From: Candidatus Saccharimonadota bacterium
GTDB taxonomy: Bacteria; Patescibacteriota; Saccharimonadia; Saccharimonadales; Saccharimonadaceae
Assembly: GCA_028286285.1 (NCBI GenBank)
Contig: JAQBRV010000002.1
Coordinates: 116,814-180,813 of the forward strand
Reading direction: 5' to 3'
Length of the DNA stretch: 64,000 bases
A program made the translations under genes and the position numbers. Positions 10,089 through 61,550 of the stretch are shown in pieces; positions within the stretch are counted from its first letter, which is position 1; every line of letters begins with the position of its first letter. Under the pieces are notes generated by a model that was not told where the DNA came from, made no database searches, and was given only the letters and a program-made list of their open reading frames with translations.

Positions 10089-10108
10089 CCTTCATTTTAG
10101 CATACGTG

Positions 10109-48340: not shown

Positions 48341-48400
48341 GACTACCTCCTATCTACCCACTCTTATATTATATGCCTACAAGAAAGAGGGAGCAAAGCC

Positions 48401-48430
48401 TGGCTGGGGTTAGTGGATATGGTTAGAATT
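48401..48430. repeat. Junction box copy (outlier, overlaps the stop of the GDPD gene)
   Basis: TGGCTGGGGTTAGTGGATATGGTTAGAATT. Confidence 0.6.
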
Positions 48431-49268
48431 TTTGATCTTGAGTGTTATTTTTACTTCGTAAAAACGGTAACCTCGATCGTTGACGATGCTGGTGCGGAGC
48501 GTCAACAAATGCATAGCGTGCACCTTTGATTTTGCGAACATCCTGCTCATCACGAGTCCACCACCAAGCGCCTATGTGGAGATTGAGTTTCTTTGCTTTT
48601 TTAATAAGCTCTGGCGTAATGTCATTACCATCTGGATGGTAGCTGTAGAGCCCCTGTGCTGAGGCCCATTCTAAACCTTCGTCGGTGACTTTGTTGACAA
48701 TAATTTCGTGCACGACAGTCGATGGGAGAAGCTTCATCGACACCAGGAGCATCGACCGGTCTTCTGAAGATATAATAATTTTCGGTTTTGTCAGCTTACG
48801 GCTCACTGCGCTACGATTTATATCATCAAGCCAGCCTGTTGAATGAAGTAGCTCGGCAACTTTTTGGGGCAAAGTAGGCTGATTTTTCTTTAGCTCAATA
48901 TGAACGTAGGCCTTCCCTCTTAAGAGTTTTAGCACTTCCAGAAGCGAGGGAATGGTTTGGTCTTTGTAGTTTGTACCGAACCATGAACCGGCATCTAGCA
49001 TTTTTAACTCAGCGTAGGTATGGTCTTTTAGTGCCCCACTGCCATTCGTCGTTCGATCTATAGTGGTGTCGTGCATAATCATCGGGACACCATCTTTGGT
49101 GAGCTGTACATCAAATTCAATATCTTTATAACCTCGATCGATAGCCATCATAAAAGCGGCATGCGTATTCTCGGGAGCGTGGATGGAATAACCACGATGG
49201 GCTACAAGCGTCGTACGTTTAAACACAATCTTAGTATACAAGATGAAAACGATGTGCAACACTAGCAT
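48423..49268 (-). CDS. Glycerophosphodiester phosphodiesterase family protein
   Basis: 281 aa. VAHRGYSIHAPENT..EFDVQLTKDGVPMIMHDTTIDRTTNG. Confidence 0.85.
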   Translation of the reverse strand: MLVLHIVFILYTKIVFKRTTLVAHRGYSIHAPENTHAAFMMAIDRGYKDIEFDVQLTKDGVPMIMHDTTIDRTTNGSGALKDHTYAELKMLDAGSWFGTNYKDQTIPSLLEVLKLLRGKAYVHIELKKNQPTLPQKVAELLHSTGWLDDINRSAVSRKLTKPKIIISSEDRSMLLVSMKLLPSTVVHEIIVNKVTDEGLEWASAQGLYSYHPDGNDITPELIKKAKKLNLHIGAWWWTRDEQDVRKIKGARYAFVDAPHQHRQRSRLPFLRSKNNTQDQKF

Positions 49269-49303
49269 TTACTGATACACTTAGCGAATGAGTTTATATA
49301 CTG

Positions 49304-50266
49304 ATGAGTATGTCAAAAACTAGATTATTATCTATCGTTGTGCCGCTCTTTAATGAGAGCGCTAGCTTCGAGGCGTTTCATGCGTCTCTGGTCGCTGTAC
49401 TCGAAAAATCAATCGAGATGCCTTACGAAATCCTTTATTGTAATGATGGCAGTTGGGATGACACGCTTAAAAAATTGACAGCGGCCGCTCACGAACATCC
49501 AAACATTCGTATCATTAGTTTATCTCGTAATTTCGGTAAAGAGCTGGCTACCACGGCTGGTATTCATGAGGCTCGGGGTAACGCTGTCCTCACTCTTGAC
49601 GCCGACGGTCAACATCCGGTAGAACTTATTCCTGAATTTGTGTCCCGCTGGCTAGCGGGTAGTAAGGTGGTGATTGGTATTCGTACCGCCAACCAAAAGG
49701 AGGGTATTGTTAAGCGCTATGGCTCAAAACTGTTTTATGGGCTTTTTAGTCGCATTACTGGCATGAAGCTTAGTGCTGGTCTGAGCGATTTTCGACTTAT
49801 TGATCGTGCCGTACAGCAAGATTTCATACGTATGACCGAACGTAATCGTATTACACGCGGGCTCGTTGAATGGCTGGGATACCCGCGCGAATATATCAAG
49901 TTCAAAGCGCATCCGCGCCTCGCTGGAGATGCTACCTACTCTATTAGGAAGTTATCAAAGCTGGCGATCGACAGCGCTGTTTCGCTTAGTATTTCGCCTC
50001 TCTACATCACCGCATACATGGGCGCCTTCGTGTTGCCCGTGTCCATACTCTTGGGCCTTGGCATGTTGATTGATACTTTGACGAATGATCCCCTTCATCT
50101 GCATATTACAGGTAGCGCGTACGTCGTTGTGTTACTACTCTTTTTGATAGGAATCTTGCTTATATCACAAGGAATCATTGGCCTGTACTTATCTCATATC
50201 CATTCCGAAACACAAAATCGTCCACTCTATATTATCGATAAAGACAGCTCGCTGGGCATCGAATGA
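49304..50266 (+). CDS. GT2 polyprenyl-phosphate glycosyltransferase (DPM1/ArnC-like)
   Basis: 320 aa. LSIVVPLFNE, DDGSWDDT, LDADGQHP and two C-terminal TM helices. Confidence 0.85.
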   Translation: MSMSKTRLLSIVVPLFNESASFEAFHASLVAVLEKSIEMPYEILYCNDGSWDDTLKKLTAAAHEHPNIRIISLSRNFGKELATTAGIHEARGNAVLTLDADGQHPVELIPEFVSRWLAGSKVVIGIRTANQKEGIVKRYGSKLFYGLFSRITGMKLSAGLSDFRLIDRAVQQDFIRMTERNRITRGLVEWLGYPREYIKFKAHPRLAGDATYSIRKLSKLAIDSAVSLSISPLYITAYMGAFVLPVSILLGLGMLIDTLTNDPLHLHITGSAYVVVLLLFLIGILLISQGIIGLYLSHIHSETQNRPLYIIDKDSSLGIE

Positions 50267-50679
50267 GAGCGGCTGTCAAATCCTTCCTCCGTCACCCCAC
50301 GAGGCGTTACTTGCTTATTGGGCTGAGCGTCTATATTCTTGAGCTCGGTGTTATTGTTGTTGCACAATGGCTCGGTGCTAGTGCGATTATTGCCGTGGCG
50401 CTTAGTTTCTGGCTTGGGGTCGCCGTGTCCTTTTTGTTGCAAAAGTTCATCACGTTTCGAGATACGCGTTTGCATCACCGTGTATTGCTGCCACAGATCA
50501 TTGCGGTATCGATGTTGATACTGTTCAATTTTGGCTTCACGATGGTCATAACGGGATTATTGACAAATCTCCTCCCGGCGGTCGTCATTCGAACGATAGC
50601 GTTGGGTATAACCACGCTCTGGAATTTTTATCTCTATCAGACTCATATCTTCAAAACGAGTGAAGGCCCAGCACGCTGA
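50263..50679 (+). CDS. GtrA family membrane protein
   Basis: 138 aa with four TM helices. Overlaps the GT2 stop by 4 nt. Confidence 0.7.
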   Translation: MRAAVKSFLRHPTRRYLLIGLSVYILELGVIVVAQWLGASAIIAVALSFWLGVAVSFLLQKFITFRDTRLHHRVLLPQIIAVSMLILFNFGFTMVITGLLTNLLPAVVIRTIALGITTLWNFYLYQTHIFKTSEGPAR

Positions 50680-53317
50680 GATGTCGAAACTGAAAAAGAA
50701 GTCCGCTCATTATCTTAAGCTTCTTCGAAAAGAGAGTAAAAAATCTTTTTTCGCCAAGAGGTATGCCGTCGTTGCGGTAGGTATATTGATAGCAACGACT
50801 TTGTACTGGGCACTCCTCGGCACCCAGATACACGCAGGCAATGCGGATCAGCTGGCGAATAGCTTTTTATTTGAAAGTGATGGTACTTTTAAAGCCGCTA
50901 CACTGCCCGATCAGCATACGTTTCTCTTAAAATGGCCAGTCTTCTTACTCATTAAACTATTTGGCTTGACGAGTATTGCATTTACAGCCGTCACTGTAGC
51001 CGCGGTACTTATCACTGTCGGAGCACTCGCTTATATAATGCATCGTATTGAGCGACGGCCATTGATTTTTGGTACGCTGTGTCTCGCTCTCGCTTCCTGC
51101 CTATTACTCGTTCCAATCGAGCCATACCCTGGGGCATCGTTGCCAGTTGGTATGGCAATGATAACGACTCGTAATCTTGAATATATTATCTTTTTAGCCA
51201 GTCTGATTTTATTAATACGATCACAGAGATGGCTGAGCTGGCGATTTATGACCGCTAGTTTACTGATAGCGTTACTCATTGCTAGCGACAAATTATTTCT
51301 CTCGGTTTCTATTGGCGGAGCGGTTCTGGCACTGATTTTTTATGCCACGGCTCGTCGGTGGGCTCTAGCAAAGTTAGCGGCAATGTGGCTCGGCGCGAGT
51401 ATTGCCGGTACAGTGGTGGCGACAGGTGTGCTCTGGCTTATTAATGCTTCGGGTATAACACATATTGCGAGTGGTACGATCGCTGGGCCCTATGCGTTCG
51501 TGCAGACTGGCAAGGAAGTGGTGCTGGGTATTGTCCATGCCATGCTCAGTTTGTTGACGAATCTCGGAGCTAATCCCGCAAGCGATACGCGACTGCTTGG
51601 TACGGTGCCGAGTCAAGCGGCGGCAAGTCTCACAAGTCCACGTGGCCCTGGGCTCATTATTAATGTCTTGATCGCTCTGGCTGGATTCACTGCTGTCGTT
51701 TACATAATCCGTATCAGTATGCAGCGTATCAAGACCAAAAAGAAAGCACGCACAAGAAAGGCAGTTTCACCCCGGGACGAAGCACTCAACATCTCAGCCA
51801 TGCTTATCTGGAGTACGATTGCAGCATGCGGTGCCTTCGTCATTAGTAATCATTATTACCCTGTAGACGCACGCTACGTAGGAATCGCTGTGTTCGCTCT
51901 CTTCATCTCGCTGGCAACCTTTGTACGGAGCTACCGGTTTAAGCGTCCAGAACGGATAGTATTAGTTGGCGCGGTTATTGTAGTAAGTATTTTCATGAGC
52001 TTGGGAGCTGCCACCAGTAGCCATAATGAGGAAAAAGCAGCCCATGCTGACATAGCCGGACGCAATAGCAGTATTCTTGGAGCGATCAAGCACCACCCTG
52101 TCGATGTATTGGTCGGCGACTATTGGCGCGTCTTGCCGATCAAGCTGGCGGCAAAGACTCCACTCGCCATCACTCCGCTGGCCGGCTGCACCCAGAGCCG
52201 CGAGGTGCTCAGCAGCCACATCTGGCAACTAGATTTGCGACACCATAGCTTTGCCTACATACTGACACTAGACCGTGGCATCACCGATGATTATCCATCG
52301 TGTTCGCTCGCACAGGTAACCAAAACGTACGGGCAGCCGAATACAAGCGTTGTACTATCAGGTAGCCTCAAGCAGCCGAAAGAACTCCTGCTGTTTTATG
52401 ACAAGGGTATTCACAAGAGCACGCCAAAAGCCCTTACTCCTTTTTCCCCGTTGGTACCGGCTACTGTAGTTCCAATTGCGATCGAGAGCGCCCCTTATAC
52501 TCGTTGTACAGAACCAACTACTATGAATATCGTGGCACACGAGGATGACGATTTATTATTTATGAACCCCGATCTATTGCATGACATCCAAGCAGGTCGG
52601 TGCATTCGTACCGTGTATGTGACATCTGGAGATGCAGGCACGGATAAATACTATTGGCTTGGTCGTGAAATGGGATCGGAAGACGCCTATCTCAGCATGG
52701 AGGGTCTTGCCGAGGACACTCTCTGGATCCAACGTATTATTAAACTACCGGGCGGCCAGTTCATTACCATTGCTAATCCTCGAGGGAATGCAAAAGTATC
52801 ACTTATCTTTATGCATTTGCCAGATGGTAATGTCGGCGGACAAGGATTTGGTTTATCACACCACGAAAGTTTGAGCTATCTTGAACGTGGCCGAATCCCT
52901 CAAATTCATACCACCGATCACCAATCGACTTACTCCTCGAGCCAACTTGCCGAAGCACTCACTACACTCATGGAGACTTATCGTCCGGACGAGATACGGA
53001 CACAGGCAAACATGGTAGACCGCCGCTATCCCGCTGATCATAGCGACCACATGGCGGTTGGACGGTATGTGAAACAGGCGTATCAAAAATATATCGACAA
53101 TTCAGGTGCGCAGATAATTTCTCCACTGGTATTTTATGTAGGGTACCCTATATCTGGTATGCCGGCTAATGTTGTCGGTGAAGATTTGGCTCAAAAGCAA
53201 CGTGCCTTTTTTACTTACGCCCGCAATGATCTTGCTGTGTGTGGCTCATTGGAGCAATGCTCACACGGCTCGGCATATAGTTCCTACCTGAAGCGTCAAT
53301 ACAAAACTGACTACTAG
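50660..53317 (+). CDS. Fusion protein: GT-C-like multi-TM glycosyltransferase domain plus C-terminal PIG-L/LmbE-family deacetylase domain
   Basis: 885 aa. About 12 TM helices in the first 440 aa. The C-terminal NIVAHEDDDLLFMNPD..VTSGDAG..HSDH matches the LmbE-type AHPDDE/HxDH pattern. Confidence 0.65.
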   Translation: MKAQHAEMSKLKKKSAHYLKLLRKESKKSFFAKRYAVVAVGILIATTLYWALLGTQIHAGNADQLANSFLFESDGTFKAATLPDQHTFLLKWPVFLLIKLFGLTSIAFTAVTVAAVLITVGALAYIMHRIERRPLIFGTLCLALASCLLLVPIEPYPGASLPVGMAMITTRNLEYIIFLASLILLIRSQRWLSWRFMTASLLIALLIASDKLFLSVSIGGAVLALIFYATARRWALAKLAAMWLGASIAGTVVATGVLWLINASGITHIASGTIAGPYAFVQTGKEVVLGIVHAMLSLLTNLGANPASDTRLLGTVPSQAAASLTSPRGPGLIINVLIALAGFTAVVYIIRISMQRIKTKKKARTRKAVSPRDEALNISAMLIWSTIAACGAFVISNHYYPVDARYVGIAVFALFISLATFVRSYRFKRPERIVLVGAVIVVSIFMSLGAATSSHNEEKAAHADIAGRNSSILGAIKHHPVDVLVGDYWRVLPIKLAAKTPLAITPLAGCTQSREVLSSHIWQLDLRHHSFAYILTLDRGITDDYPSCSLAQVTKTYGQPNTSVVLSGSLKQPKELLLFYDKGIHKSTPKALTPFSPLVPATVVPIAIESAPYTRCTEPTTMNIVAHEDDDLLFMNPDLLHDIQAGRCIRTVYVTSGDAGTDKYYWLGREMGSEDAYLSMEGLAEDTLWIQRIIKLPGGQFITIANPRGNAKVSLIFMHLPDGNVGGQGFGLSHHESLSYLERGRIPQIHTTDHQSTYSSSQLAEALTTLMETYRPDEIRTQANMVDRRYPADHSDHMAVGRYVKQAYQKYIDNSGAQIISPLVFYVGYPISGMPANVVGEDLAQKQRAFFTYARNDLAVCGSLEQCSHGSAYSSYLKRQYKTDY

Positions 53318-53340
53318 ATCGGTCGGCTAGTAGATGTCTT

Positions 53341-53583
53341 TCAAGAAAGTTTGGAAGCAAGCCACTCTCTTAATAAGAGCGTTGTGCCGGCGTACGGGAA
53401 TATTGCGTAGAACATGTCAGAAACAGAGTGAGCATTCCGCGCTGCGGTCATAACTACAGTAACTACGAATAACATAGCAACGGCATCGATAAGGTAGCTG
53501 CCAGAGGTAATGGGTACGTGGACAATTTTACTATTTCGGTAAAGTTTCACAGCCTCAGTATACCAGAACATCTTTAATATCAA
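53341..53583 (-). CDS. Small membrane protein
   Basis: 80-aa ORF with two hydrophobic helices. Leftmost unit of the array. Confidence 0.4.
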   Translation of the reverse strand: MILKMFWYTEAVKLYRNSKIVHVPITSGSYLIDAVAMLFVVTVVMTAARNAHSVSDMFYAIFPYAGTTLLLREWLASKLS

Positions 53584-53612
53584 ATATCAGAGATGTTAAA
53601 ATGCATGCATCT

Positions 53613-53649
53613 CGGCTGGGCTTAGTGGATGTGTTTCAAACTTTTCAGG
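53613..53649. repeat. Junction box copy
   Basis: CGGCTGGGCTTAGTGGATGTGTTTCAAACTTTTCAGG. Overlaps the stop codon of ORF 53645-54058. Confidence 0.75.
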
Positions 53650-54058
53650 TCGATGTTGGTAAAATAGCGTACATCGGCACTCCCGGAAGCCTTTTCCTGA
53701 AACCTGACGTCGCCTGAAATATGTTGTTATTGTACGGCAGATTGATCCATGGATCCATCCAACCTTTATTGTGTCGAATGAGATAATGTCCGCTTGGATA
53801 GCGTTTTGATCGCCGAATAAGTACTATAGTGCCTTCCTGGTATATTAATTTTCTAATATGCGGCTTTACATGCTTTGATATGTACCCTGCACCTGCACAA
53901 TTTAGTGCAGTAGTTAAATCATTAACCCAAAATCGCGTACTCACGGCCTGCTTTGAGCCTAATTGTGTCGCTGCTTGCTGGTAATTCAAATTAAGCGCGA
54001 ACGCATAGCAAGCAATCCCGCATCCATGATCAAATTCTTGTGTAACGCTTTCCTTCAT
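53645..54058 (-). CDS. Peptidase C39-like (papain-fold cysteine peptidase) domain protein
   Basis: Start at MKESVTQEF (ATG 54058). FDHGCGIACYAFALN (Cys) and PSGHYLI (His). Confidence 0.55.
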   Translation of the reverse strand: MKESVTQEFDHGCGIACYAFALNLNYQQAATQLGSKQAVSTRFWVNDLTTALNCAGAGYISKHVKPHIRKLIYQEGTIVLIRRSKRYPSGHYLIRHNKGWMDPWINLPYNNNIFQATSGFRKRLPGVPMYAILPTST

Positions 54059-54090
54059 GTAGCTAGTGTAGAATTTATAATTATATAAAC

Positions 54091-54126
54091 AAGTGCAAAA
54101 CAAAAAGACTTTGCAAGGAAGTCTTT
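54091..54126 (-). terminator. Intrinsic terminator-like hairpin (minus strand) following a junction box
   Basis: AAAGACTT/AAGTCTTT stem (54104-54126), followed on the minus strand by a T-rich run. Confidence 0.45.
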
Positions 54127-54133
54127 AACATGC

Positions 54134-54171
54134 TTGGCTGGGCTAGTGGACATATTTAGAACTTTTCAAGG
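54134..54171. repeat. Junction box copy
   Basis: TTGGCTGGGCTAGTGGACATATTTAGAACTTTTCAAGG. Lies 10 nt from the cassette A hairpin. Confidence 0.75.
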
Positions 54172-54580
54172 TAGTTATTTGGGTGAGGAGGTCGATGTTC
54201 AGACCTCCTCACCCTGGGTGAGTTTTGAGTTTGACCACTAGACTTGCGTCTATCATTCATGTGGATGGCAGTGAGGAAACGAGAGTAGAGAACTCAACCA
54301 AGAAACATTCACTCTCTTCACATACCTTTTTCGGTTGCGGCTTATCTTGTCAGCGTTGCTGATCTGACTTAGATAGCCGATGCCCCGCTTGCGCGGAGCG
54401 CCCCTACTGTCGGGTATCTAATCCGACGGGGTATTTCTTTCGGCACGCGATACTTTCGTACCACGGACTCTTGCCAGCACTTAGCGCAACAATGTCACGG
54501 GGTTACCGGCAAAGAGACGAACGCGCATTAGATATTTCACACCTGCACATTCATCATTTTTTATCATAACATTCTTTTAC
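54172..54580 (-). ncRNA. ORF-less cassette A: GC-rich structured RNA containing a 16S 790-loop-like hairpin
   Basis: No ORF of 60 aa or more in any frame across 54104-54664. Minus-strand hairpins capped by GNRA loops: GGUAC-GAAA-GUAUC (54449-54462) and CUCCGC-GCAA-GCGGGG (54383-54398). GUCGG-AUUAGAUAC-CCGAC at 54410-54428. A 13-bp perfect hairpin lies at the 3' end (54181-54214). Confidence 0.5.
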
Positions 54581-54613
54581 CGGAAAATAAAAAGACTTCG
54601 CTAGGAAGTCTTT
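54581..54613 (-). terminator. Intrinsic terminator (minus strand) following a junction box
   Basis: AAAGACTTC-GCTAG-GAAGTCTTT hairpin, followed on the minus strand by TTATTTTCC. Confidence 0.5.
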
Positions 54614-54627
54614 TAGCGTGAGCGTCT

Positions 54628-54659
54628 TGGCTGGGGCTAGTGGATGTGTTTCAGGAAAG
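54628..54659. repeat. Junction box copy
   Basis: TGGCTGGGGCTAGTGGATGTGTTTCAGGAAAG. Lies 5 nt from the Nudix stop codon. Confidence 0.8.
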
Positions 54660-54664
54660 TGAAA

Positions 54665-55066
54665 CTACAAACTTTTTAGAACTTCAGCTAAATATGGCTC
54701 CGCGTTAATAGATTTTATGTTGTCCAAGCTTACCCATTGGTATACCTCATGCTCATCGCTTAAATGTATCTCTGATATATTTTCTTCAATTACGTAAGTA
54801 AGACGCACGACATGGAGGTCTTTGGTAGTCACAAAAATATCTTGTGCGGCTATTAGTTCTGGTGTTGAATATATATCATAACCAACCTCTTCTTTTATCT
54901 CACGTTTTAATGCATCAATTAAGTTCTCGTCTGGATTAATTCTCCCTCCTGGAATGTCCCAAGATGTTTCACTAGAGTCAGTAGTTAGTAAGTTACTTCT
55001 TCGCAGGAATAAGCATTCATTACCACTATTCTTAATAATCGCTTTTACACCAATTTGAAGTATCAT
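54665..55066 (-). CDS. NUDIX hydrolase
   Basis: 133 aa. Nudix box GGRINPDENLIDALKREIKEEVGY. Confidence 0.85.
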   Translation of the reverse strand: MILQIGVKAIIKNSGNECLFLRRSNLLTTDSSETSWDIPGGRINPDENLIDALKREIKEEVGYDIYSTPELIAAQDIFVTTKDLHVVRLTYVIEENISEIHLSDEHEVYQWVSLDNIKSINAEPYLAEVLKSL

Positions 55067-55110
55067 ACATACATTGTAGCAGGAAGGTGGTCTTACCCTT
55101 CATTAAACTT

Positions 55111-55557
55111 TTAAGTCAAAATGTCTAGCATTGCATCCTGCTCATTAAGCGAAAGTGGTTCAAATTTATCTCTGCTCCATCGCAAAGCTTCTGTGTATGC
55201 TTCCTCGCCTGGATTACTGGGTAGGATATGAAAATGAACATGATTCATTTTTACTCCGTCCTGATCTATAGAAGGTCTTGTTTTTTGCCACACATCAACC
55301 CCAAGAGCAATCGTCCCCAAAAGACGTCTATATATAGGTGAAATAAGTTCATGTATCGCCTGTACCTCATCGCTACTCAAATCATCCAATGACTCTGAGT
55401 GTCTTTTAGGTATAACCAAACTATGTCCAGTCACTAAGCGTGGCGATGAAAGTAGGCTTATCGCGTGTTCATTGGAGCTTATCATTCTTTCAGAAAAGCT
55501 TGAAGGTTCACAAAAATTGCATTCGCTGCTCGACATCATGATCAAGTATTTGGCCAT
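55111..55557 (-). CDS. HIT (histidine triad) family protein
   Basis: HVHFHILP triad and a CNFC N-terminal motif. The start is uncertain (the track ORF extends to 55611; alternatives at 55557 or about 55539). Confidence 0.75.
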   Translation of the reverse strand: MAKYLIMMSSSECNFCEPSSFSERMISSNEHAISLLSSPRLVTGHSLVIPKRHSESLDDLSSDEVQAIHELISPIYRRLLGTIALGVDVWQKTRPSIDQDGVKMNHVHFHILPSNPGEEAYTEALRWSRDKFEPLSLNEQDAMLDILT

Positions 55558-55608
55558 AGGTATGAAATTGCAAGCACAACCATAAAACAAAAAAATACCA
55601 TGATTGAC

Positions 55609-55661
55609 CATAGTGTTTATACTGGGCTGGGGCTAGTGGATGTGTTGAGAACTTTTGAGAC
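55609..55661. repeat. Junction box copy with left extension
   Basis: CATAGTGTTTATACTGGGCTGGGGCTAGTGGATGTGTTGAGAACTTTTGAGAC. Lies 4 nt from the MazG-like stop codon. Confidence 0.8.
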
Positions 55662-55665
55662 AGGG

Positions 55666-56022
55666 CTAATCGTTGTTTAACATGAGTAAGCGCAACTTGA
55701 ATCCGCCACGCTTTTGACGCTTTTCATCTTGAATAGCTTGGATTTGTTCAAGAGAGACGCCTTTTAGTTCGAGGATTGCATCTAGAATCTCTCTTACATC
55801 TGCAATTTCTTCAAGGATATTCGAATCAGTTACCGCGTTCTCTAGCTCTTGTGCCTCTTCGGTAACTTTTTTAAGAAGGAAATGTAAAAACTCTTCATCA
55901 TCAAGTGTTCTTGTATCAACTTCTCTACCGTCAGCTAGTATAATCTCCGGAATCCGATCTCGAATTAATTTAGGGTATTCGTTTTCTGCTGGTAGATCAG
56001 TGATCGTATGTTCAAATGTCAT
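55666..56022 (-). CDS. MazG-like / all-alpha NTP pyrophosphohydrolase family protein
   Basis: Start at MTFEHTITD (ATG 56022). KLIRDRIPEII, EEAQELENA, EEIADVREILDAI and QDEKRQKRGGF. Confidence 0.7.
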   Translation of the reverse strand: MTFEHTITDLPAENEYPKLIRDRIPEIILADGREVDTRTLDDEEFLHFLLKKVTEEAQELENAVTDSNILEEIADVREILDAILELKGVSLEQIQAIQDEKRQKRGGFKLRLLMLNND

Positions 56023-56066
56023 AATTTGATTATAGCAAACAAAAGACCTCACAGTGGAGTCATTCG

Positions 56067-56112
56067 TATAGCGCTTATGCTCGGCTGAGCTAGTGGGTAT
56101 TTCAGGAAATGG
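56067..56112. repeat. Junction box copy with left extension
   Basis: TATAGCGCTTATGCTCGGCTGAGCTAGTGGGTATTTCAGGAAATGG. Abuts the stop codon at 56113. Confidence 0.75.
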
Positions 56113-56304
56113 TTATTGATTCTGCTGATTCATCGCTGCAATTTGGTCACTAAACCTTTTCAGTTCAGCTTGAGATTGGTAGAAATCACTCAATAGCTGA
56201 TCATCGACCCCCTCTTGCAAGATGCCCTTGCTCTGCACCTTTGCCATAATATCGGTTGCTCGTCTCAGTACTGCACCATATGCTTCTATAAATTCTGGAG
56301 TCAT
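56113..56304 (-). CDS. Small helical hypothetical protein
   Basis: 63-aa ORF. Its stop abuts a junction box. Confidence 0.4.
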   Translation of the reverse strand: MTPEFIEAYGAVLRRATDIMAKVQSKGILQEGVDDQLLSDFYQSQAELKRFSDQIAAMNQQNQ

Positions 56305-56364
56305 GCTCTTACTATACGCTGGTACTAGCTGTAAAGGTATAGGCCGCCCAAGTCAGAGTATTAT

Positions 56365-56392
56365 TTGGGGCTAGTGGATGTTTCAGGAAGAA
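56365..56392. repeat. Junction box copy (left part missing)
   Basis: TTGGGGCTAGTGGATGTTTCAGGAAGAA. Confidence 0.7.
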
Positions 56393-56463
56393 TTACAACT
56401 TACGAATCGCACCTTCATGGCGTTCGCCTAGTTCGCGAAGATGTGCGGGTACAGTCGCTAGTC

Positions 56464-56934
56464 CTATCGCAGACATAACCCCCCTGAAATATGTGTAAGT
56501 GTTTCGTTGCCTCCTGCTGACATTGACATGAATGCTGCAGTCGCTAGATTTGTCGCCTTCTGATAAGACTGACCCTTGGTTACTTCGCCTGTCTTTAGTA
56601 GGTGGACACTATTGAAAGTGCCTGCAGCAATAGCACGCGCCGCCAGAACTATCGCGTATGGGACTGAAGCCGGATTAGTTTTTGTAATTTCATATGTGAC
56701 CCTCGCAATAGATAAATGGTCGACAACACCATCTGCAACTCTACGCATTGGAGTATCGGCGTTAAATTTTCTTAAGATTGCACCATCAAGAACATCAGCT
56801 ATGACAAATGCTGCCATATGACCACAGATTGGTTTATGTTGATCAACTCGACGAGCCATTTTCTCGGCAAGTAAATATCTGGCACCTGTCAGTGCTATGC
56901 CTGGCAACTCTTTAGAAATATGCGATATCTTCAC
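56464..56934 (-). CDS. Short CDP-alcohol phosphatidyltransferase-like protein
   Basis: 156 aa, GTG start. DVLDGAILRKFNADTPMRRVADGVVDH fits D-x2-DG-x2-AR-x8-G-x3-D-x3-D, except that the Gly is replaced by Arg. Confidence 0.45.
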   Translation of the reverse strand: MKISHISKELPGIALTGARYLLAEKMARRVDQHKPICGHMAAFVIADVLDGAILRKFNADTPMRRVADGVVDHLSIARVTYEITKTNPASVPYAIVLAARAIAAGTFNSVHLLKTGEVTKGQSYQKATNLATAAFMSMSAGGNETLTHISGGLCLR

Positions 56935-56982
56935 TCAGATCAATATTAGCAAAAATACCCCATACAATATATAGGGTATTTT

Positions 56983-57030
56983 TATAGTGCTTATGCTCGG
57001 CTGGGGCTAGTGGACGTGTTTCAGGAAGAA
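56983..57030. repeat. Junction box copy with left extension
   Basis: TATAGTGCTTATGCTCGGCTGGGGCTAGTGGACGTGTTTCAGGAAGAA. Confidence 0.85.
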
Positions 57031-57383
57031 TCAATTCATGGATAGTCGCGGTGGACGAGGGGTTCATTCATCCCTCGTCCACCGCTTATAGCGAGCAGTA
57101 CTAGAGCCTTCGGCTATATTAACTCGAAGGTCGTGCCTCATCCAGTGACTGGTATTCAAAGATCGACTCCACGACAACTTGCGCCGTCGCTTCATTGTCT
57201 CCCAGCTATCCTATACATCTGGAATATTGACTCTACGTACCTAGGTGTGAGGAACCGAACCCCGCAAGCGCAGATCAATCTACGCAGGCCACCCAACGTC
57301 ACCATATTCGCAAGATTATTATATCCGGCTTCGTAACAAAACTACAAGCATAAACAAGAAGACTTCCGAAGGGATCTTGATTC
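57031..57383 (-). ncRNA. ORF-less cassette B: GC-rich structured RNA
   Basis: No convincing ORF (only a 67-aa plus-strand ORF of odd composition). A 14-bp perfect hairpin at 57048-57085 lies directly next to the box, as in cassette A. On the minus strand, the GACGGC-GCAA-GUUGUC hairpin has G-U pairs that would be A-C mismatches on the plus strand. Confidence 0.4.
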
Positions 57384-57431
57384 TATAGTGCTTATGCTCG
57401 GCTGGGGCTAGTGGATGTGTTTCAGGAAGAA
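57384..57431. repeat. Junction box copy with left extension
   Basis: TATAGTGCTTATGCTCGGCTGGGGCTAGTGGATGTGTTTCAGGAAGAA. 47/48 identical to the copy at 56983. Confidence 0.85.
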
Positions 57432-57480
57432 ACTGCGGCTATAACAATAGAAAACGGAGTTAGTATAATCAATCAAATGC

Positions 57481-57918
57481 CTATGCTTGTCCATCTCTAT
57501 TAGGGTCGAATTCTACCGTCCACTCAATACCGTACTTGTCTCTAAACATCCCGAAATACGTATCCCATGGGCTATCGCCCATAGGCATTTCAATCGTTCC
57601 ACCTACAGTAAGTCCGGTGAATATGTTGTCGGCTTCTGCACGACTTTCCGTACTAATTGATATCTTAGACCTGTTTTCTTTTTCATTTACTGGACCCATA
57701 CTTTCAGGAACATCATTGGCTATTAAAGTATTCGCACCAATCGGCAAAGCAATACGCATGATTTTATTTGCTTCATTTTCTGGTACAGGAAACTCTGAGC
57801 TTTCTAGATCTTTGAAGCGCACAATAGTTTCGAACTCTCCACCAAACACAGATTTGTAAAAAATGAAGGCTTCTTCGGCATTTCCGTTGAAGTTAATGTA
57901 AGGATTGATAGTTGCCAT
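57481..57918 (-). CDS. VOC-superfamily protein (PhnB-like)
   Basis: 145 aa. INPYINFNGNAEEAFIFYKSVFGG .. FRDKYGIEWTV. Confidence 0.75.
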   Translation of the reverse strand: MATINPYINFNGNAEEAFIFYKSVFGGEFETIVRFKDLESSEFPVPENEANKIMRIALPIGANTLIANDVPESMGPVNEKENRSKISISTESRAEADNIFTGLTVGGTIEMPMGDSPWDTYFGMFRDKYGIEWTVEFDPNRDGQA

Positions 57919-57977
57919 TTAGATTATTCCCCTTAGTAAATATTTAGTTTCATTTCTATTTTAGCAGATGTAACTTT

Positions 57978-58024
57978 CATAGCACTTCTGTTTGGCTGGG
58001 CTGGCGGACGTGTTTCAGGAAGAA
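57978..58024. repeat. Junction box copy with left extension (diverged)
   Basis: CATAGCACTTCTGTTTGGCTGGGCTGGCGGACGTGTTTCAGGAAGAA. Confidence 0.75.
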
Positions 58025-58058
58025 TTTCCACCCTCCTAATTATTAATCTGGAGATTAA

Positions 58059-58517
58059 TCACTTACCAGCAAACACGTCCACTTGATCTTTAGCAGTAAT
58101 AATAAAGTTGCGAAGATTCTTCTGCACGAGCGTTTCCCAGCCATCGGAGCAATTTAGATAGCACGCAATCAGGGGCACTAAGCCTCTATGCGTAAAGACC
58201 AACTCAGTTTTGCCATCTTTTTCATTAATCTCGAAGATTATGTCAGTACCTTTCCACTCGTCTTTTTTATCGACAAAGCTTAAGTAACCATCTGTAACAT
58301 GCCACACTATCTTTTCTGCTGGAACAAATTCAGTTACTTTTTGTGTAGATCGGTGTATGTCACTGTATCGATAGGTAAATTCCGCGCCAAGTTTTTCTGG
58401 GTTTCCTTCGATCTCACCTGACCACCAGCCACGAACATTATTGATCGCATCAAATACTTCTTGAGGGGTTTGCTCCACCAATATGCTGGTGGTGAAATCT
58501 TGGTTATTATTTGTCAT
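58059..58517 (-). CDS. SRPBCC / AHSA1-domain protein
   Basis: Start at MTNNNQDF (ATG 58517). VFDAINNVRGWWSGEIEG..FTYRY. Confidence 0.7.
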   Translation of the reverse strand: MTNNNQDFTTSILVEQTPQEVFDAINNVRGWWSGEIEGNPEKLGAEFTYRYSDIHRSTQKVTEFVPAEKIVWHVTDGYLSFVDKKDEWKGTDIIFEINEKDGKTELVFTHRGLVPLIACYLNCSDGWETLVQKNLRNFIITAKDQVDVFAGK

Positions 58518-58596
58518 GATGAATCTCCTCTTATTTATTAAGTATAGTGTATATATAGTGGTTTCAAATTGCAACCGCTTTTGTTATACTTATGAT

Positions 58597-59004
58597 ATGA
58601 AAAAGCGAAGCCCAACAATATGTCCGATTGTTTTTTCTCTTGATACATTTGGAGACACATGGAGCTTAGTGATACTCAGAGACATCTTGCTTTTTAATAA
58701 ATCCCATTTTCGAGAATTTCTAGTATCCAAAGAAAAGATTGCGAGCAATATTTTGAGTGCCCGGCTCGAGACCCTTATTGACAACGGATTACTTACCAAA
58801 GAAGCAGATATGAATAATAAAAGTGCTGCTATCTACAAGCCGACGAATAAAACACTCGAGTTGTTGCCCATGATATTAGAGATGATGAAGTGGGGTGTTA
58901 GGTATAATCCAGACACAGATAGGAAAAGTGGTCCGATCATGCATCTACTGCTTACTGACCCCGAGGGATTACGTACGAGCGTAGTCTCAAAGTTCAAAGC
59001 TTAG
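58597..59004 (+). CDS. HxlR-type winged-helix transcriptional regulator
   Basis: Start at MKKRSPTICPIVFSLDTFGDTWSLVILRDIL (ATG 58597). Divergent from the SRPBCC gene. Confidence 0.75.
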   Translation: MKKRSPTICPIVFSLDTFGDTWSLVILRDILLFNKSHFREFLVSKEKIASNILSARLETLIDNGLLTKEADMNNKSAAIYKPTNKTLELLPMILEMMKWGVRYNPDTDRKSGPIMHLLLTDPEGLRTSVVSKFKA

Positions 59005-59090
59005 TCAGCTGTACTGAGGCGAAAAAACGAGTGTTCTGATCCCGATCCGAATTATGAAAAACGCCAGACTGCACGGTCTGACGTTTTTCA

Positions 59091-59121
59091 TGGCTGGGGT
59101 TAGTGGACGTGTTTAGGAAAC
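59091..59121. repeat. Junction box copy
   Basis: TGGCTGGGGTTAGTGGACGTGTTTAGGAAAC. Preceded by the bidirectional terminator-like hairpin AAAAACGCCAGAC..GTCTGACGTTTTT (59056-59087). Confidence 0.75.
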
Positions 59122-59153
59122 ACTAATGCATAATTCAATCGGGAATCCGATTC

Positions 59154-59735
59154 TTAACTTTTAATTTCGTGTGCAGTGCCATCGTTAAATGTTGCCTTCA
59201 ATTCAACGAATACATCTGTTGGATGTAGATCGGTTTGGTCAAAGGCTAATCTTTTGGCCTCAGGCTCAATAAATATTTGCGTCTTTTGTTTTTTGCCCTT
59301 TTCTCCAGCATACACAACTAATTGAATGCCTCTTTTAGATTCCATTAGTTGTGATGTTACAAAGTATTTGTCATCACTAGTCTTGAGTTTCTCTTTAGCA
59401 ATAGGTACAGCCTCGTCATCAAGATTAATGGTAGCCATCTTTGAGTAATTAAGGGCATCTAAACGTTTTTGTACATATAGTCTTTCTTGCGAATAAATAC
59501 GAGGCATTGTGTACATGTGCCCTTCATCGCAGTATAAATACTGGCCGTCTGACCAGCTTATTGTCGATTGTCCGTTAATAGTAGCAGAATGGTTGCTACT
59601 TGATGGGGTTAATTTCATTGAATGTTTGGGGCATATTGCATGCACTTCCTCAACTAGCTTACCCCTTACATTTATCCTTTGGGCTGAATGCCATTTAACA
59701 CTATCCACTCGTACCAATTTGTCATCGGAATTCAT
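59154..59735 (-). CDS. Hypothetical protein with a possible CxxH..CxxxH metal knuckle
   Basis: Start at MNSDDKLV (ATG 59735). AICPKH .. YCDEGH. No family recognised. Confidence 0.5.
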   Translation of the reverse strand: MNSDDKLVRVDSVKWHSAQRINVRGKLVEEVHAICPKHSMKLTPSSSNHSATINGQSTISWSDGQYLYCDEGHMYTMPRIYSQERLYVQKRLDALNYSKMATINLDDEAVPIAKEKLKTSDDKYFVTSQLMESKRGIQLVVYAGEKGKKQKTQIFIEPEAKRLAFDQTDLHPTDVFVELKATFNDGTAHEIKS

Positions 59736-59824
59736 ATATGAATTATACACCCATATGTACAGCATATCTTCTATCTGTTAGAATAGTATCAAATTTATTG
59801 TGGTGGGCTGAAAGTCGGCTACTC

Positions 59825-60940
59825 ATGGTTTTAAAAGAATTTCTCCAAGACTTAGATATAACTACAGAGTTCTTCAATTTTACAGGTTTTATTGATAATT
59901 TTGCTGTTACTGCCAATATTGCGCAAAATGCAAAAAATGGAACAAGTTCAGACTGGCGTACTGAACTTGACGCACAAATTACCATAATAGATGAAGCCGT
60001 CCTAAGCTTTGAGGTTAGCCAGTCTACTCTTCTTATCGAAAATTCTTACATAGAGGCTTCCGATTCTGCATATACGATTTTGAATTATCGATCAACATTA
60101 ATTAATATTTTTGACGATATCCTAACAGCGGATGTAGAGATTAATCGGCATTCAGAAGAGTTAAGAACTTTTCGAGCCAATACCGTTCAGATTAAAGACA
60201 GCCTAGAAGAGGTGGGCATCAATATTCCAAAGCAAGAAGAGCACGATGGCTATTTGGTAAAGTTTGAGTTTAAACAATTGAGCGACTTTGATTCGATGGG
60301 AAAGCTTGGAGCTACTGGGCATGCCTTAAATAGGCATATTCGCTCGCTCATGAAATTAGATCCAGATGCCCCACTAAAAGATATCGAAATTTCAACAGTA
60401 TCTAAATCATCTCCTTTTATGATTAGTGTATGGCTAACTAAGAAGGCTGCTGATGCAATCAACGCTATTATTGGTGGCGGTCTAGAGAACTATAAAAAGA
60501 TGCAAGAGATCCAAGTATTAAATGAAGATGTCAAAAAAGCAAAGCTAGGAACTCGCTCAGCGCAGATCGGTGTCATTCTTGATGAGGCCCGAGCGGACTT
60601 GGAACTATCTGTCATTAACGAACTTAAAAATGATCTGATGGTGGGATATCCACCAGAAGGCCCCAACGGCACAAAATCCGAAGTTGAAGAAGGAGTAGCA
60701 AAAGCGATTCAATACCTAGTCTCTCAAACCGGCAAAGGCCTTGAGGTAAAAGTTCTGCCCCCCACTACGGATATTAATTCTGACGCAACCGGGAGGGACA
60801 TAATTAAGGAATATGCACAAAAGAGAATCCGCGCAGAACAGATTATGAAGCAATTGCCTAATAGTATCGAGTCAGACGATTCTGCGGATGAGGTCGAAGT
60901 TCATCCTGATCCTGTTGAAGACGCATATATTGTAGCTTAA
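59825..60940 (+). CDS. Hypothetical 371-aa protein, largely helical, acidic C-terminus
   Basis: Start at MVLKEFLQDLD (ATG 59825). No catalytic motif recognised. Divergent from the previous ORF. Confidence 0.55.
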   Translation: MVLKEFLQDLDITTEFFNFTGFIDNFAVTANIAQNAKNGTSSDWRTELDAQITIIDEAVLSFEVSQSTLLIENSYIEASDSAYTILNYRSTLINIFDDILTADVEINRHSEELRTFRANTVQIKDSLEEVGINIPKQEEHDGYLVKFEFKQLSDFDSMGKLGATGHALNRHIRSLMKLDPDAPLKDIEISTVSKSSPFMISVWLTKKAADAINAIIGGGLENYKKMQEIQVLNEDVKKAKLGTRSAQIGVILDEARADLELSVINELKNDLMVGYPPEGPNGTKSEVEEGVAKAIQYLVSQTGKGLEVKVLPPTTDINSDATGRDIIKEYAQKRIRAEQIMKQLPNSIESDDSADEVEVHPDPVEDAYIVA

Positions 60941-61107
60941 TATTGCTGACGGCTAAAGCATAGATTAATTGTCAAAAAATTCAACGGCTAAGAAGCCGAT
61001 AGGCACATGGCGAAGACTGTGCTAGAATCGAGCTCGCCGTTGAAAATGATGACTTTACAACAGCTACGTAACTAGAAGTAGTTTAACCTCAATGATATAA
61101 TAGACCT

Positions 61108-61220
61108 ACGACCTACGCAGCGGGGCGCGGATGAATCAAATAGCTACATTGTAGGAAAGAAACATCCGTAGTTGGAGACCACGCAAAGAAGTAAATATCT
61201 TCGTTCGTGGTCTCTTTTAT
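61108..61220 (+). ncRNA. Candidate small RNA bracketed by an extended -10 promoter and an intrinsic terminator
   Basis: TGATATAAT at 61093-61101. GAGACCACG/CGTGGTCTC stem at 61175-61214, followed by TTTT. The interval contains only a 7-codon ORF. Confidence 0.3.
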
Positions 61221-61239
61221 TATCCCTATCAATCAAACT

Positions 61240-61425
61240 TGGCTGGGGTGGAGGGATTCGAGTCACGTTCCGCGACCCCGCAACTTCGCGATTGACGATT
61301 AATCGTCATCGGAAGATTGCTCTCAAACTGCCACTGGCAGTTTTCGCCCCGAATGTGCACTCGAGGGTTTGAACCCACTCATCCGCAATCACGCAAAAAC
61401 CCGACCAAATGGTCGAGCCTCTGCG
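61240..61425 (-). pseudogene. Degenerate partial tRNA-Gln copy (anticodon-stem to 3' end) interrupted by about 95 nt
   Basis: The minus strand reads ..GTGCACATTCGGGG[insert]TCGAATCCCTCCACCCCAGCCA, against the gene's GTGCCGACATTCGGGGGTTCGAATCCCTCCGCCCCAGCCA. Confidence 0.55.
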
Positions 61426-61475
61426 TGGCTGGGGTGGAAGGCCTGCCTACCGGCAGGGATTCACTACATGCTTCC
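61426..61475 (-). repeat. 50-nt segment ending in a second copy of the tRNA-Gln acceptor 3' end (ACCCCAGCCA)
   Basis: TGGCTGGGGTGGAAGG.. lies directly downstream of the tRNA-Gln CCA end and contains a CCTGCC-GGTA-GGCAGG hairpin. Confidence 0.55.
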
Positions 61476-61550
61476 TGGCTGGGGCGGAGGGATTCGAACC
61501 CCCGAATGTCGGCACCAAAAGCCGATGCCTTACCACTTGGCGACACCCCA
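61476..61550 (-). tRNA. tRNA-Gln (anticodon UUG), CCA encoded
   Basis: TGGGGTGTCGCCAAGTGGTAAGGCATCGGCTTTTGGTGCCGACATTCGGGGGTTCGAATCCCTCCGCCCCAGCCA. Anticodon loop TTTTGGT. Confidence 0.9.

Follow-up and report, generated by a model that had tools for sequence, protein, structure and literature searches.

What kind of genetic system places a row of small, unrelated genes, each unit closed by the same short repeat, behind a single tRNA gene? The question is raised by a 64,000-nucleotide stretch of a Candidatus Saccharimonadota contig (JAQBRV010000002.1, positions 116,814 to 180,813; hereafter the window), in which such a row ends at a tRNA-Gln gene. An inspection made from the letters alone (the sequence-only reading) had described ten copies of the repeat, here called the box, and had likened the layout to an integron or a tycheposon-like island while assigning it to neither. 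The analysis reported here identifies the row as a cassette array typical of Saccharibacteria. We put a probability of roughly 0.65 on the reading that non-autonomous, self-expressing cassettes are recombined site-specifically at the tRNA-Gln 3' end by an enzyme acting in trans. Saccharibacteria live as ultra-small epibionts, their genomes measure about 1 Mb, and few mobile elements have been recognised in them; a conserved tRNA-anchored array would be their main flexible-genome locus.

The box and its tRNA-Gln anchor

A profile hidden Markov model was built from the ten proposed copies and a repeat finder was also run. The profile recovered 10/10 copies, all on the minus strand (E 7e-16 to 7e-8); a strict pattern search returned the three best copies only. 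The box is 33 bases long and reads TTCTTCCTGAAACACATCCACTAGCCCCAGCCA in the direction of the tRNA, i.e. on the minus strand, where its consensus is TTCTTCCTGAAACAC[A/G]TCCACTAGCCCCAGCC[A/G], with AGCATAAGCACTATA coming next in five copies. A leftward extension had been claimed for five copies, and the repeat finder located it as ATAGTGCTTATGCTC in 4-5 of them. Two further copies were found at 48399-48431 and, in degenerate form, at about 53320-53351 (profile matches 48399-48421, E 0.003, and 53325-53351, E 0.028). The first of these, read directly as AAAAATTCTAACCATATCCACTAACCCCAGCCA, is a good example of a second left-arm subtype (AAAAGTTCTAAAC...), and its TAA serves as the stop codon of a 281-aa GDPD gene. 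No box beyond these 12 was detected by the profile in the 64 kb, and 12/12 copies lie on one strand inside a single 13-kb tract. The tRNA-anchored array is real, but since boxes reach about 48.4 kb, it probably spans 48.4 to 61.5 kb and does not begin at the proposed 53.3 kb. The island is AT-rich as had been noted, with a GC content of 0.39-0.43 against about 0.50 in the flanks. The block at 48432-53319 (GC 0.45-0.47) was counted in the array because boxes flank it on both sides, and this 5-kb cell-envelope glycosylation module may be a large cassette of the same array.

The adjoining gene is indeed a tRNA-Gln(UUG), found by ARAGORN and matched by the Rfam tRNA model at 61 bits. The last 9 bases of the box, CCCCAGCCA, equal the acceptor 3' strand, discriminator base and CCA of this tRNA (...GAATCCCTCCGCCCCAGCCA). 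Over 20 nt, 14 positions of the box and the tRNA end match, including an ATCC at equal spacing. The box is partly tRNA-derived, a point absent from the sequence-only reading. Moreover, two true partial tRNA-Gln 3' ends were found downstream of the tRNA, at 61426-61447 and 61240-61264 (repeat finder and sequence), and the former looks like a recombination scar. As had been stated, boxes sit 3' of stop codons: 8/10 follow a long same-strand open reading frame (ORF) by 2-72 nt, and 2/10 follow GC-rich units devoid of ORFs.

The distribution of the box was examined by scanning one genome per species (185,579 species, 596 Gb) with the pattern ACAYRTCCACTARCCCCAGCC; matching loci were taken as 8-kb excerpts and are given here by L numbers. 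The pattern occurred at 33 loci in 27 assemblies, versus about 2 chance matches expected by our own arithmetic. Nearly all of these assemblies are labelled Candidatus Saccharibacteria, Saccharimonadia or Saccharimonadales, the remainder being unclassified 'bacterium' metagenome-assembled genomes. This distribution agrees with the origin of the window in a Saccharibacteria (TM7, CPR) genome, which is itself not one of the 27. Each 8-kb locus holds 1-6 boxes by profile, in a single orientation throughout. A tRNA was present in 19/33 loci (ARAGORN), and in 19/19 it was tRNA-Gln (UUG or CUG), with the boxes downstream of it in the same orientation; no other tRNA type stood beside boxes in the 33 loci. 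In the genome UBA6025, arrays occupy both tRNA-Gln isoacceptor genes (L021, L031). The locus maps share one plan, tRNA-Gln followed by repeating ORF and box. In ten loci, the genes upstream of tRNA-Gln were unrelated housekeeping genes (major facilitator superfamily transporters, S-adenosylmethionine synthetase, heliorhodopsin, rRNA and tRNA methyltransferases, an ATP-binding cassette ATPase); the array therefore tracks the tRNA and not a particular neighbourhood. Copies in other genomes cluster at one or two loci, adjoining tRNA-Gln wherever a tRNA is within range. The box was absent from IMG/VR viral contigs. Exact look-ups of the ATPase and VOC proteins of the window gave no record, and a metagenome scan with the P-type ATPase flanking the array in the window yielded no closer relatives than those at 55-62% identity, near which neither a tRNA nor boxes were found.

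A dispersed repetitive extragenic palindromic or terminator-associated repeat was also considered and rejected. Such a repeat would be spread evenly after genes; all 12 copies in the window are confined to the tRNA-Gln locus, and those elsewhere show the clustering just described.

Some assembled contigs end exactly inside a box (L017 and L022, match 4-24 in both; L047, box 13558-13588 of 13593). Homologues of one cargo protein, which has a Cys/His motif, lie mostly on very short contigs, many of 0.5-3 kb. There are hints that arrays break assemblies, possibly via population-level variation at boxes.

Cassette anatomy and probable exchange between arrays

In the direction of the tRNA and from core to core (the core being the tRNA 3' end within the box), a cassette consists of a variable arm, a terminator often joined by a promoter, one or two ORFs or structured non-coding DNA, and the left arm plus core. 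The left arm is a conserved 24-nt sequence, TTCTTCCTGAAACACATCCACTAG, followed by the core. At 65/80 boxes, a same-strand frame of at least 70 codons ends no more than 150 nt upstream; at 35/80 the stop codon is found between -12 and +7 relative to the start of the box, and at eight boxes the stop used is the box's own TGA inside CCTGAAAC. A hairpin with a T-run lies within 70 nt after the box in 54/79 cases, against 13.6% at random positions in those loci, and a -10-like motif follows in 34% against 7%, often as TGCTATAAT, the form seen in the clearest cases. These box-anchored comparisons with random positions were used in place of a generic promoter and terminator scan, which gave no significant enrichment. 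Units measure 0.3-2 kb and come with a terminator, a promoter and an ORF of their own. Over 27 species the left arm, 24 nt of non-tRNA sequence, hardly varies, while cargo proteins are 30-77% identical, which argues for selection on the box.

The sequence after the CCA falls into several families, namely AGCATAAGCAYTATAGAA, AGATGATTATGCTTAAAA, or an A-run leading into a hairpin. They were assigned by reading alignments, since automatic typing put most arms in 'other'. The 8-mer TTATGCTT of one arm family is the reverse complement of AAGCATAA in another. The same families also trail genuine tRNA-Gln genes, as AGCATAAGCAGTATAGAA in L029, GATTATGCTTAAA in L007, L001 and L032, and TGAAAAA in L004 and L011, and the other three tRNAs of the window lack them.

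The position of the box between stop codon and intrinsic terminator, which would place it in the 3' untranslated region (3' UTR), and its co-orientation with the ORFs would also suit a role at the RNA level: the box as a 3'-UTR or terminator element that mimics the tRNA-Gln 3' end for processing or stability, with arrays formed by local duplication and gene replacement. This is judged very improbable, as the box occurs at tRNA-Gln loci only and not after genes elsewhere, and the region has no significant fold as single-stranded DNA (three boxes, both strands, z -2.0 to +0.8, minimum free energy -1.9 to -8.4 kcal/mol). Furthermore, the same downstream sequences follow ORF-less units and the tRNA itself, which is a signature of exchange at the DNA level.

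Exchange between arrays was examined by comparing cassettes and their limits. An ORF-less unit of about 190 bp stands after tRNA-Gln in L011 and L009 and after a box in L002, L003 and L024 (alignment A1). To the left of CCCAGCCA the aligned sequences are either tRNA body or box arm, homology begins at the core, and the unit ends in ATCCCTCCACCCCAGCCA. Likewise, the Cys/His-motif cassette (53645-54103) recurs in L006, L019 and L023 at 47-64% protein identity, with homology that spans the promoter TTGTTTATATAATTATAAATTCTACACT, the ORF and the box in four arrays. Upstream, this homology is bounded by the CCCAGCC core behind four different left arms; downstream, it is bounded by the cassette's own box, and the neighbours beyond are unrelated. 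The VOC cassette is 77% identical in L030, Nudix cassettes recur across arrays, and the array tract of RYN_404 holds more cores with still other left arms. These comparisons bear out the mobile-cassette interpretation of the sequence-only reading: homologous cassettes occur in different arrays and their homology stops at the box core. As a rule, the units are bounded by the tRNA-3'-end core. Such limits would be expected because, by inference from the Campbell model, tandem site-specific integration at a tRNA predicts attP-like internal junctions (arm, core, arm) with the tRNA restored.

Saccharibacteria are reported to undergo natural transformation, and homologous recombination after it, with box and tRNA as short homology anchors and no dedicated recombinase, could in principle move the same cassettes. 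Near-identical sequence of 33-50 bp borders each unit, the searches revealed no linked recombinase, and genes for competence and type IV pili are common in these genomes, even as cargo (TfoX_N in L046). We nevertheless regard this explanation as quite improbable, since 33 bp is at the lower limit for RecA-mediated exchange, and it leaves unexplained why the shared segment ends exactly in a tRNA 3' end, why arrays lie solely downstream of tRNA-Gln (or tRNA-Lys) in one orientation, and why the same 9-nt core stands behind different left arms.

The tRNA-Lys case came to light through P0336, which among widely sampled homologues is the one closest to the Cys/His-motif cassette protein; its identical sequence is indexed in 42 collection blocks, and 24 contigs were read. 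It belongs to an array in which small genes of one orientation follow tRNA-Lys(CUU) (L054, 1862-1938), in contigs L054-L061, which carry the NCBI label Candidatus Nomurabacteria. No box of the tRNA-Gln type was found in this array. Its junctions consist of a non-tRNA left arm (e.g. TTGTTGCAACAGCATCTACAC) and the tRNA-Lys 3' end TGGCCCTCCA, and continue with TTGGTTATGCTTAAA, a terminator, and then TTTTTTGATATAAT or GCTATAGT. The TTATGCTTAA arm and the terminator and promoter design are common to both kinds of array. Directly after tRNA-Lys lies an ORF-less element of about 190 nt that ends in a tRNA-Lys-like 3' end. Since these junctions are of the same design, the architecture is generic and the core tracks the target tRNA. 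Five of the eight contigs begin inside or just past the tRNA-Lys gene.

Candidate enzymes and known systems compared

In the mechanism that we consider most probable, a circular cassette with one box would recombine with the tRNA 3' end or with another core, which would restore the tRNA and leave attP-like box junctions between cassettes. Each unit would be insulated by its leading terminator and expressed from its own promoter, and the recombinase would be supplied in trans, given that the cassettes carry no recombinase gene. The comparisons show the layout, the preference for tRNA-Gln, its conservation throughout the lineage and the breaks in homology at the core, whereas we infer the circular intermediates, the direction of insertion and the enzyme.

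The island had been described as free of recombinases, and the same was found for the whole window (Pfam and phmmer; the Pfam search covered ORFs of at least 150 aa and the smaller island ORFs). Apart from cargo, the Pfam content of the window is housekeeping: ATP synthase, GluRS, Dus, an AddA-like helicase-nuclease, pilins, sortase, glycosyltransferases and histidine kinases. Thirty ORFs from other arrays encode pilin-like proteins, HSP20, a DNA methyltransferase, Fic, a histidine kinase and others. A phmmer search with an approximate E. coli XerD sequence, run against the ORFs in all six frames of the window and of 38 loci, had no match below E 0.5. Opposite-strand ORFs adjoining tRNA-Gln in L011 and L004 had no Pfam match. 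About 270 kb of array loci held one recombinase, a large serine recombinase of 602 aa in L005, whose C-terminus is encoded antisense to a tRNA-Gln 3' fragment; a regex screen and phmmer with XerD and this protein revealed no further recombinase in the array loci.

The L005 recombinase has 1669 homologues, the top 120 of them 54-87% identical and on contigs of up to 1.2 Mb. The ORF runs antisense through an intact tRNA-Gln in L039, L042 and L044, and through a tRNA-Trp with an identical T-arm and a single-base difference in the acceptor 3' strand in L043. The tRNA sequence determines the C-terminal tail of these proteins of about 560-610 aa (…MAGDEGFEPP…ALPLGQSP). Their gene lies at the end of an island that encodes VirB4, a VirD4-like ATPase, TrbC-type pilins, an M23 peptidase, a Replic_Relax protein and restriction or defence cargo, i.e. 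a type IV secretion system (T4SS) island, in which a 56-aa ORF overlaps the recombinase start. In RYN_404 (L046), a box array lies directly on the tRNA side of the serine recombinase. Other T4SS islands (L048, L051) have a different serine recombinase of 495 aa, the L048 copy at another tRNA-Trp; contigs checked for the far end of the island carried the 495-aa recombinase at tRNA-Trp or started inside the island. Because it is resident, conserved and directed to the right target site, the large serine recombinase of about 560-610 aa is the leading candidate for the putative trans-acting enzyme. An unlinked tyrosine (Xer-like) recombinase is about equally possible; a strict 9-bp shared core is more typical of tyrosine recombinases, which weakens the serine candidate. 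The location of these genes suggests that the 'chromosomal' T4SS cluster of candidate phyla radiation (CPR) bacteria is or was an integrative element. In a recent study, the CPR T4SS was treated as chromosomal and largely relaxase-less, with no mention of a recombinase or tRNA beside it (bioRxiv 10.1101/2025.01.22.634366); the link of a CPR T4SS island to a tRNA-targeting serine recombinase is absent from that work.

Several points weigh against trans-catalysed cassette recombination. No recombination product was observed, be it a circle, an empty site or a strain-level insertion or deletion, and the material consists mainly of 8-kb excerpts and metagenome-assembled genomes. Conservation of the arm right of the core is uneven, an unusual feature in a recombinase site with two arms. 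In several boxes of the window the sequence is CCAGCCG, and an insertion beside the tRNA with the crossover upstream of that base would spoil the encoded CCA. The serine recombinase is linked to the boxes by location only, its junction in RYN_404 being a 33-nt tRNA fragment and not a canonical box, and the XerD query sequence was approximate. Finally, the eight tRNA-Lys-array contigs are 99.5-99.97% identical and perfectly collinear, with no strain-level insertions or deletions among them. Cassette turnover therefore looks slow relative to strain divergence. The sequence-only reading had named identical cassette order in relatives as an outcome that would speak against it; order is not identical between species, but it is so among these eight contigs.

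The missing turnover in near-identical contigs would equally be expected of a static graveyard, in which autonomous tRNA-Gln-targeting islands or prophages integrated serially and decayed, leaving boxes as inherited and inactive att scars. In relatives, tRNA-Gln is indeed occupied by integrative T4SS islands that have a serine recombinase, and true partial tRNA-Gln copies adjoin the tRNA. Yet no recombinase fragments remain in the window and a single intact recombinase occurs in the array loci, the units are too small and too complete in terminator, promoter and ORF to resemble such remains, the contrast between the left arm and the diverged cargo indicates selection on the box, and one cassette is core-bounded in four unrelated arrays. 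The graveyard is accordingly considered unlikely.

Returning to recombination in trans, the array was compared with the known systems that it recalls. Integrons (IntI, attI and attC cassette arrays, called CALINs where the integrase is lacking) have in common with it one-directional arrays of small, mostly single-gene cassettes, a site at the ORF 3' end that sometimes gives the stop codon, a fixed primary site, and diverse accessory cargo (Nudix, VOC, toxin-like); co-oriented cassettes of ORF plus site do stand at a single primary site here. Unlike in integrons, this primary site is the 3' end of a tRNA gene, there is no intI beside the tRNA-Gln arrays (Pfam of the window, genes upstream of the tRNA in ten loci, phmmer), the cassettes bring their own terminator and promoter whereas integrons rely on a common Pc promoter, and the host lineage is Saccharibacteria (CPR). 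An attC-like site was rejected because the box region does not fold as single-stranded DNA; the box is not a palindrome of the attC kind and has no GTTRRRY core, as had been stated.

Tycheposons of Prochlorococcus encode a recombinase of their own, either tyrosine or large serine, and in many cases replication genes as well (bioRxiv 10.1101/2020.12.28.424599). The array resembles them in tRNA-gene integration, older units pushed deeper, partial tRNA repeats at junctions and niche-gene cargo: the 9-nt core in the boxes and the tRNA fragments at 61240 and 61426 go together with tandem accumulation. It differs in that its units of 0.3-2 kb have no recombinase or replication genes and in that its junction is 9 nt of tRNA plus a conserved non-tRNA arm. 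By Pfam and phmmer, no recombinase was found in the window units or, save for L005, in the 30 ORFs from other arrays, and the Pfam content of the units included no replication or packaging module (primase, helicase, or of the kind in phage-inducible chromosomal islands). Neither integron nor tycheposon thus describes the array, as the sequence-only reading had held.

Two further systems employ a recombinase from outside. Cis-mobilizable elements (CIMEs) are non-autonomous att-flanked elements that accrete beside the integrative and conjugative elements (ICEs) ICESt1 and ICESt3 of Streptococcus thermophilus, and mobilizable islands borrow an ICE integrase. Here too, recombinase-less units with att-like bounds gather where an island of conjugative type integrates, and the recombinase of that island might act on them; the RYN_404 array abuts the serine-recombinase end of a T4SS island; the differences are that up to a dozen single-gene units stand in a row and that the box differs from the island's own junction. 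Xer-dependent modules are represented by elements inserted at dif (IMEX) and by the pdif modules of Acinetobacter plasmids. Like the cassettes, these modules are small, lack a recombinase of their own and are bounded by short sites; a housekeeping enzyme serves them. The arm TTATGCTTAAA (reverse complement AAGCATAA) resembles the XerD half-site TTATGTTAAAT; in one junction class this right arm stands after CCA plus 6 nt, and many junctions lack it. Unlike dif, the left arm AGCCCCAGCCA has no conserved ...ATAA, left arm and core misfit a XerC half-site, and the spacing is wrong for a 6-bp central region of the AGCATAAGCATTATG form. In addition, the array sites share one direct orientation and belong to a tRNA locus, and no Xer gene was seen nearby. 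Taken together, the array works like an integron in layout and logic, resembles tycheposons by its target and CIME or IMEX passengers by its presumed dependence on an outside enzyme; integrons and tycheposons differ from it in defining features, and CIME and IMEX elements in the points just named. Literature searches on Saccharibacteria and Patescibacteria found no description of such tRNA-anchored cassette arrays.

A wider proposal can be put forward tentatively: an integron-independent gene-capture platform in Saccharibacteria, and probably in other CPR, that would use tRNA 3' ends as insertion sites and in which expression cassettes, some of them structured non-coding RNAs, would be shuffled by a host-resident trans recombinase, maybe the T4SS-island serine recombinase at tRNA-Gln or tRNA-Trp. 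It would be an integron-like solution that relies on other components (a landing site in a tRNA, a 33-bp box without structure, self-terminating and self-promoting cassettes) and would widen the known range of gene capture. Judging from the cargo, which includes type IV pilin variants, Nudix, HIT and MazG proteins of nucleotide housekeeping, detoxification folds and small regulators, the array would be a natural place for host-interaction and defence genes. Some CPR bacteria are now genetically tractable, and the array could supply a ready integration site and part set for their engineering.

Cargo and features of the window

The features of the array are collected in Table 1. The cargo described earlier was largely confirmed, as Pfam backs the Nudix, HIT, MazG-like (PRA-PH), CDP-OH_P_transf, VOC/glyoxalase, SRPBCC (AHSA1) and HxlR assignments. 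The C39-like peptidase label was not confirmed, the sole match being a weak one to Guanylate_cyc_2 (E 0.16). For the 400-aa and 203-aa ORFs of the tRNA-proximal unit, no match was obtained in Pfam or PADLOC and no homologue in other array loci (tblastn).

Table 1 Array features in the window, from the tRNA outward
Feature	Position	Strand	Remarks
tRNA-Gln(UUG)	61476..61550	-	array anchor; 3' end ...CCGCCCCAGCCA gives the 9-nt core common to every box; ARAGORN, Rfam, sequence
short tRNA-Gln 3'-end duplicate ccttccaccccagcca	61426..61447	-	28 nt past the tRNA; repeat finder, sequence
ORF-less structured unit	61240..61425	-	terminator hairpin, then tRNA-Gln 3' fragment (variable loop to CCA) with ~85-nt T-loop insert; ends GACTCGAATCCCTCCACCCCAGCCA; no Rfam match
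tRNA-proximal unit	59124..61239	-	400-aa ORF 59738-60940 plus; 203-aa ORF 59154-59765 minus; no Pfam or PADLOC match for either
box GTGTTTCCTAAACACGTCCACTAACCCCAGCCA	59091..59123	-	terminator hairpin next
SRPBCC/AHSA1 + HxlR cassette	58031..59090	-	SRPBCC/AHSA1 58059-58574 minus; divergent HxlR regulator 58483-59004 plus; Pfam
box with one deletion TTCTTCCTGAAACACGTCCGCCAGCCCAGCCA	57992..58030	-	repeat finder, profile
VOC/glyoxalase-fold cassette	57432..57991	-	ORF 57481-57918; 77% identical to L030 array cassette gene; Pfam, tblastn, blastn
canonical box TTCTTCCTGAAACACATCCACTAGCCCCAGCC(G)	57399..57431	-	pattern, profile
ORF-less GC-rich structured cassette	57031..57398	-	RNA fold z -3.2, 0/100 shuffles as good; no Rfam match
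canonical box	56998..57030	-	pattern, profile
CDP-alcohol phosphatidyltransferase-like cassette	56397..56997	-	ORF 56464-56934; Pfam CDP-OH_P_transf
box with truncated core (...CCACTAGCCCCAAATAA)	56365..56396	-	repeat finder, profile
63-aa-ORF cassette	56114..56364	-	ORF 56113-56304
degenerate box CCATTTCCTGAAATACCCACTAGCTCAGCCG	56082..56113	-	profile
MazG-like (PRA-PH) cassette	55657..56081	-	ORF 55666-56052; Pfam
box, subtype AAAAGTTCTCAACACATCCACTAGCCCCAGCC	55624..55656	-	profile
two-gene cassette HIT + Nudix	54661..55623	-	HIT 55111-55611, Nudix 54665-55066; Pfam; Nudix also matches PADLOC PDC-S07
box + terminator AAAAGACTTCCTAGCGAAGTCTTTTT	54628..54660	-	pattern, profile
ORF-less strongly structured cassette	54167..54627	-	RNA fold z -6.6, 0/100 shuffles as good; no Rfam match
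box, subtype AAAAGTTCTAAATATGTCCACTAGCCCAGCCA	54134..54166	-	profile
Cys/His-motif protein cassette (137-152 aa)	53646..54133	-	ORF 53645-54103; also in L006, L019, L023; tblastn and alignment; 261 homologue clusters
box AAAAGTTTGAAACACATCCACTAAGCCCAGCCG	53613..53645	-	profile
80-aa-ORF unit	53320..53612	-	ORF 53341-53583; ends in degenerate box CTTTCTTGAAAGACATCTACTAGCCGACCG at about 53320-53351
large distal unit (probable)	48432..53319	mixed	GDPD 48423-49268 minus; GT2 49304-50266 plus; GtrA 50263-50679 plus; 885-aa PIG-L membrane protein 50660-53317 plus; Pfam
box AAAAATTCTAACCATATCCACTAACCCCAGCCA	48399..48431	-	twelfth copy; profile and sequence

The ORF-less structured cassettes may be non-coding RNA cargo. 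At gathering thresholds, Rfam found only tRNAs in the window, and allowing E up to 1 in 53-62 kb added one chance-level microRNA match. The units at 54175-54590 and 57040-57380 (minus strand) are GC-rich and have no homologue in the other 33 loci; the former holds a 13-mer, GGATTAGATACCC, at about 54412-54424, which also occurs in 16S rRNA.

The unit next to the tRNA is of a more conserved type. Homologues of this ORF-less element of about 200 nt (61240-61425) were found after tRNA-Gln or boxes in L009, L010, L011, L020, L021, L023, L026, L031 and L033; its hairpins show compensatory changes and the ~85-nt insert splits the T-loop. In L026 (6990->6830), an entire pseudo-tRNA-Gln bearing the ~85-nt insert lies upstream of the intact gene. 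A second ORF-less variant (alignment A1) has conserved helices, with double changes in 10/58 predicted pairs. The conserved element might serve as a landing pad or as an accessory arm for recombination, or might be a small RNA. Tandem tRNA-Gln 3'-end duplicates (GTCGAATCCCTCATCCCCAGCCA, ATCGAATCCCTCCATCCCAGCCA) were also seen 20-30 nt past the tRNA or a box in L020 (5107-5150) and L026 (about 6700-6730 and 3130-3160). Their identity begins in the T-loop, which points to a putative second crossover position, of T-loop type, used by another element at tRNA-Gln.

The top protein family across the array loci is type IV pilin-like, with 17 members in 11 loci, mostly as cargo (L011, L013, L015, L021, L022, L023 and L033 among them). 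These proteins have an N-terminal methylation motif and variable C-terminal domains, such as 7-bladed lactonase propellers, RCC1 repeats with fn3, and a laminin-G lectin. L033 holds two tandem 471-aa copies, with a box closing each. Two pilin-like genes of the window lie outside the array (9120-11089). On the distal side of the array, small genes of accessory type (two VOC-like, ABM, PCMT) run on to 43 kb without detectable boxes.

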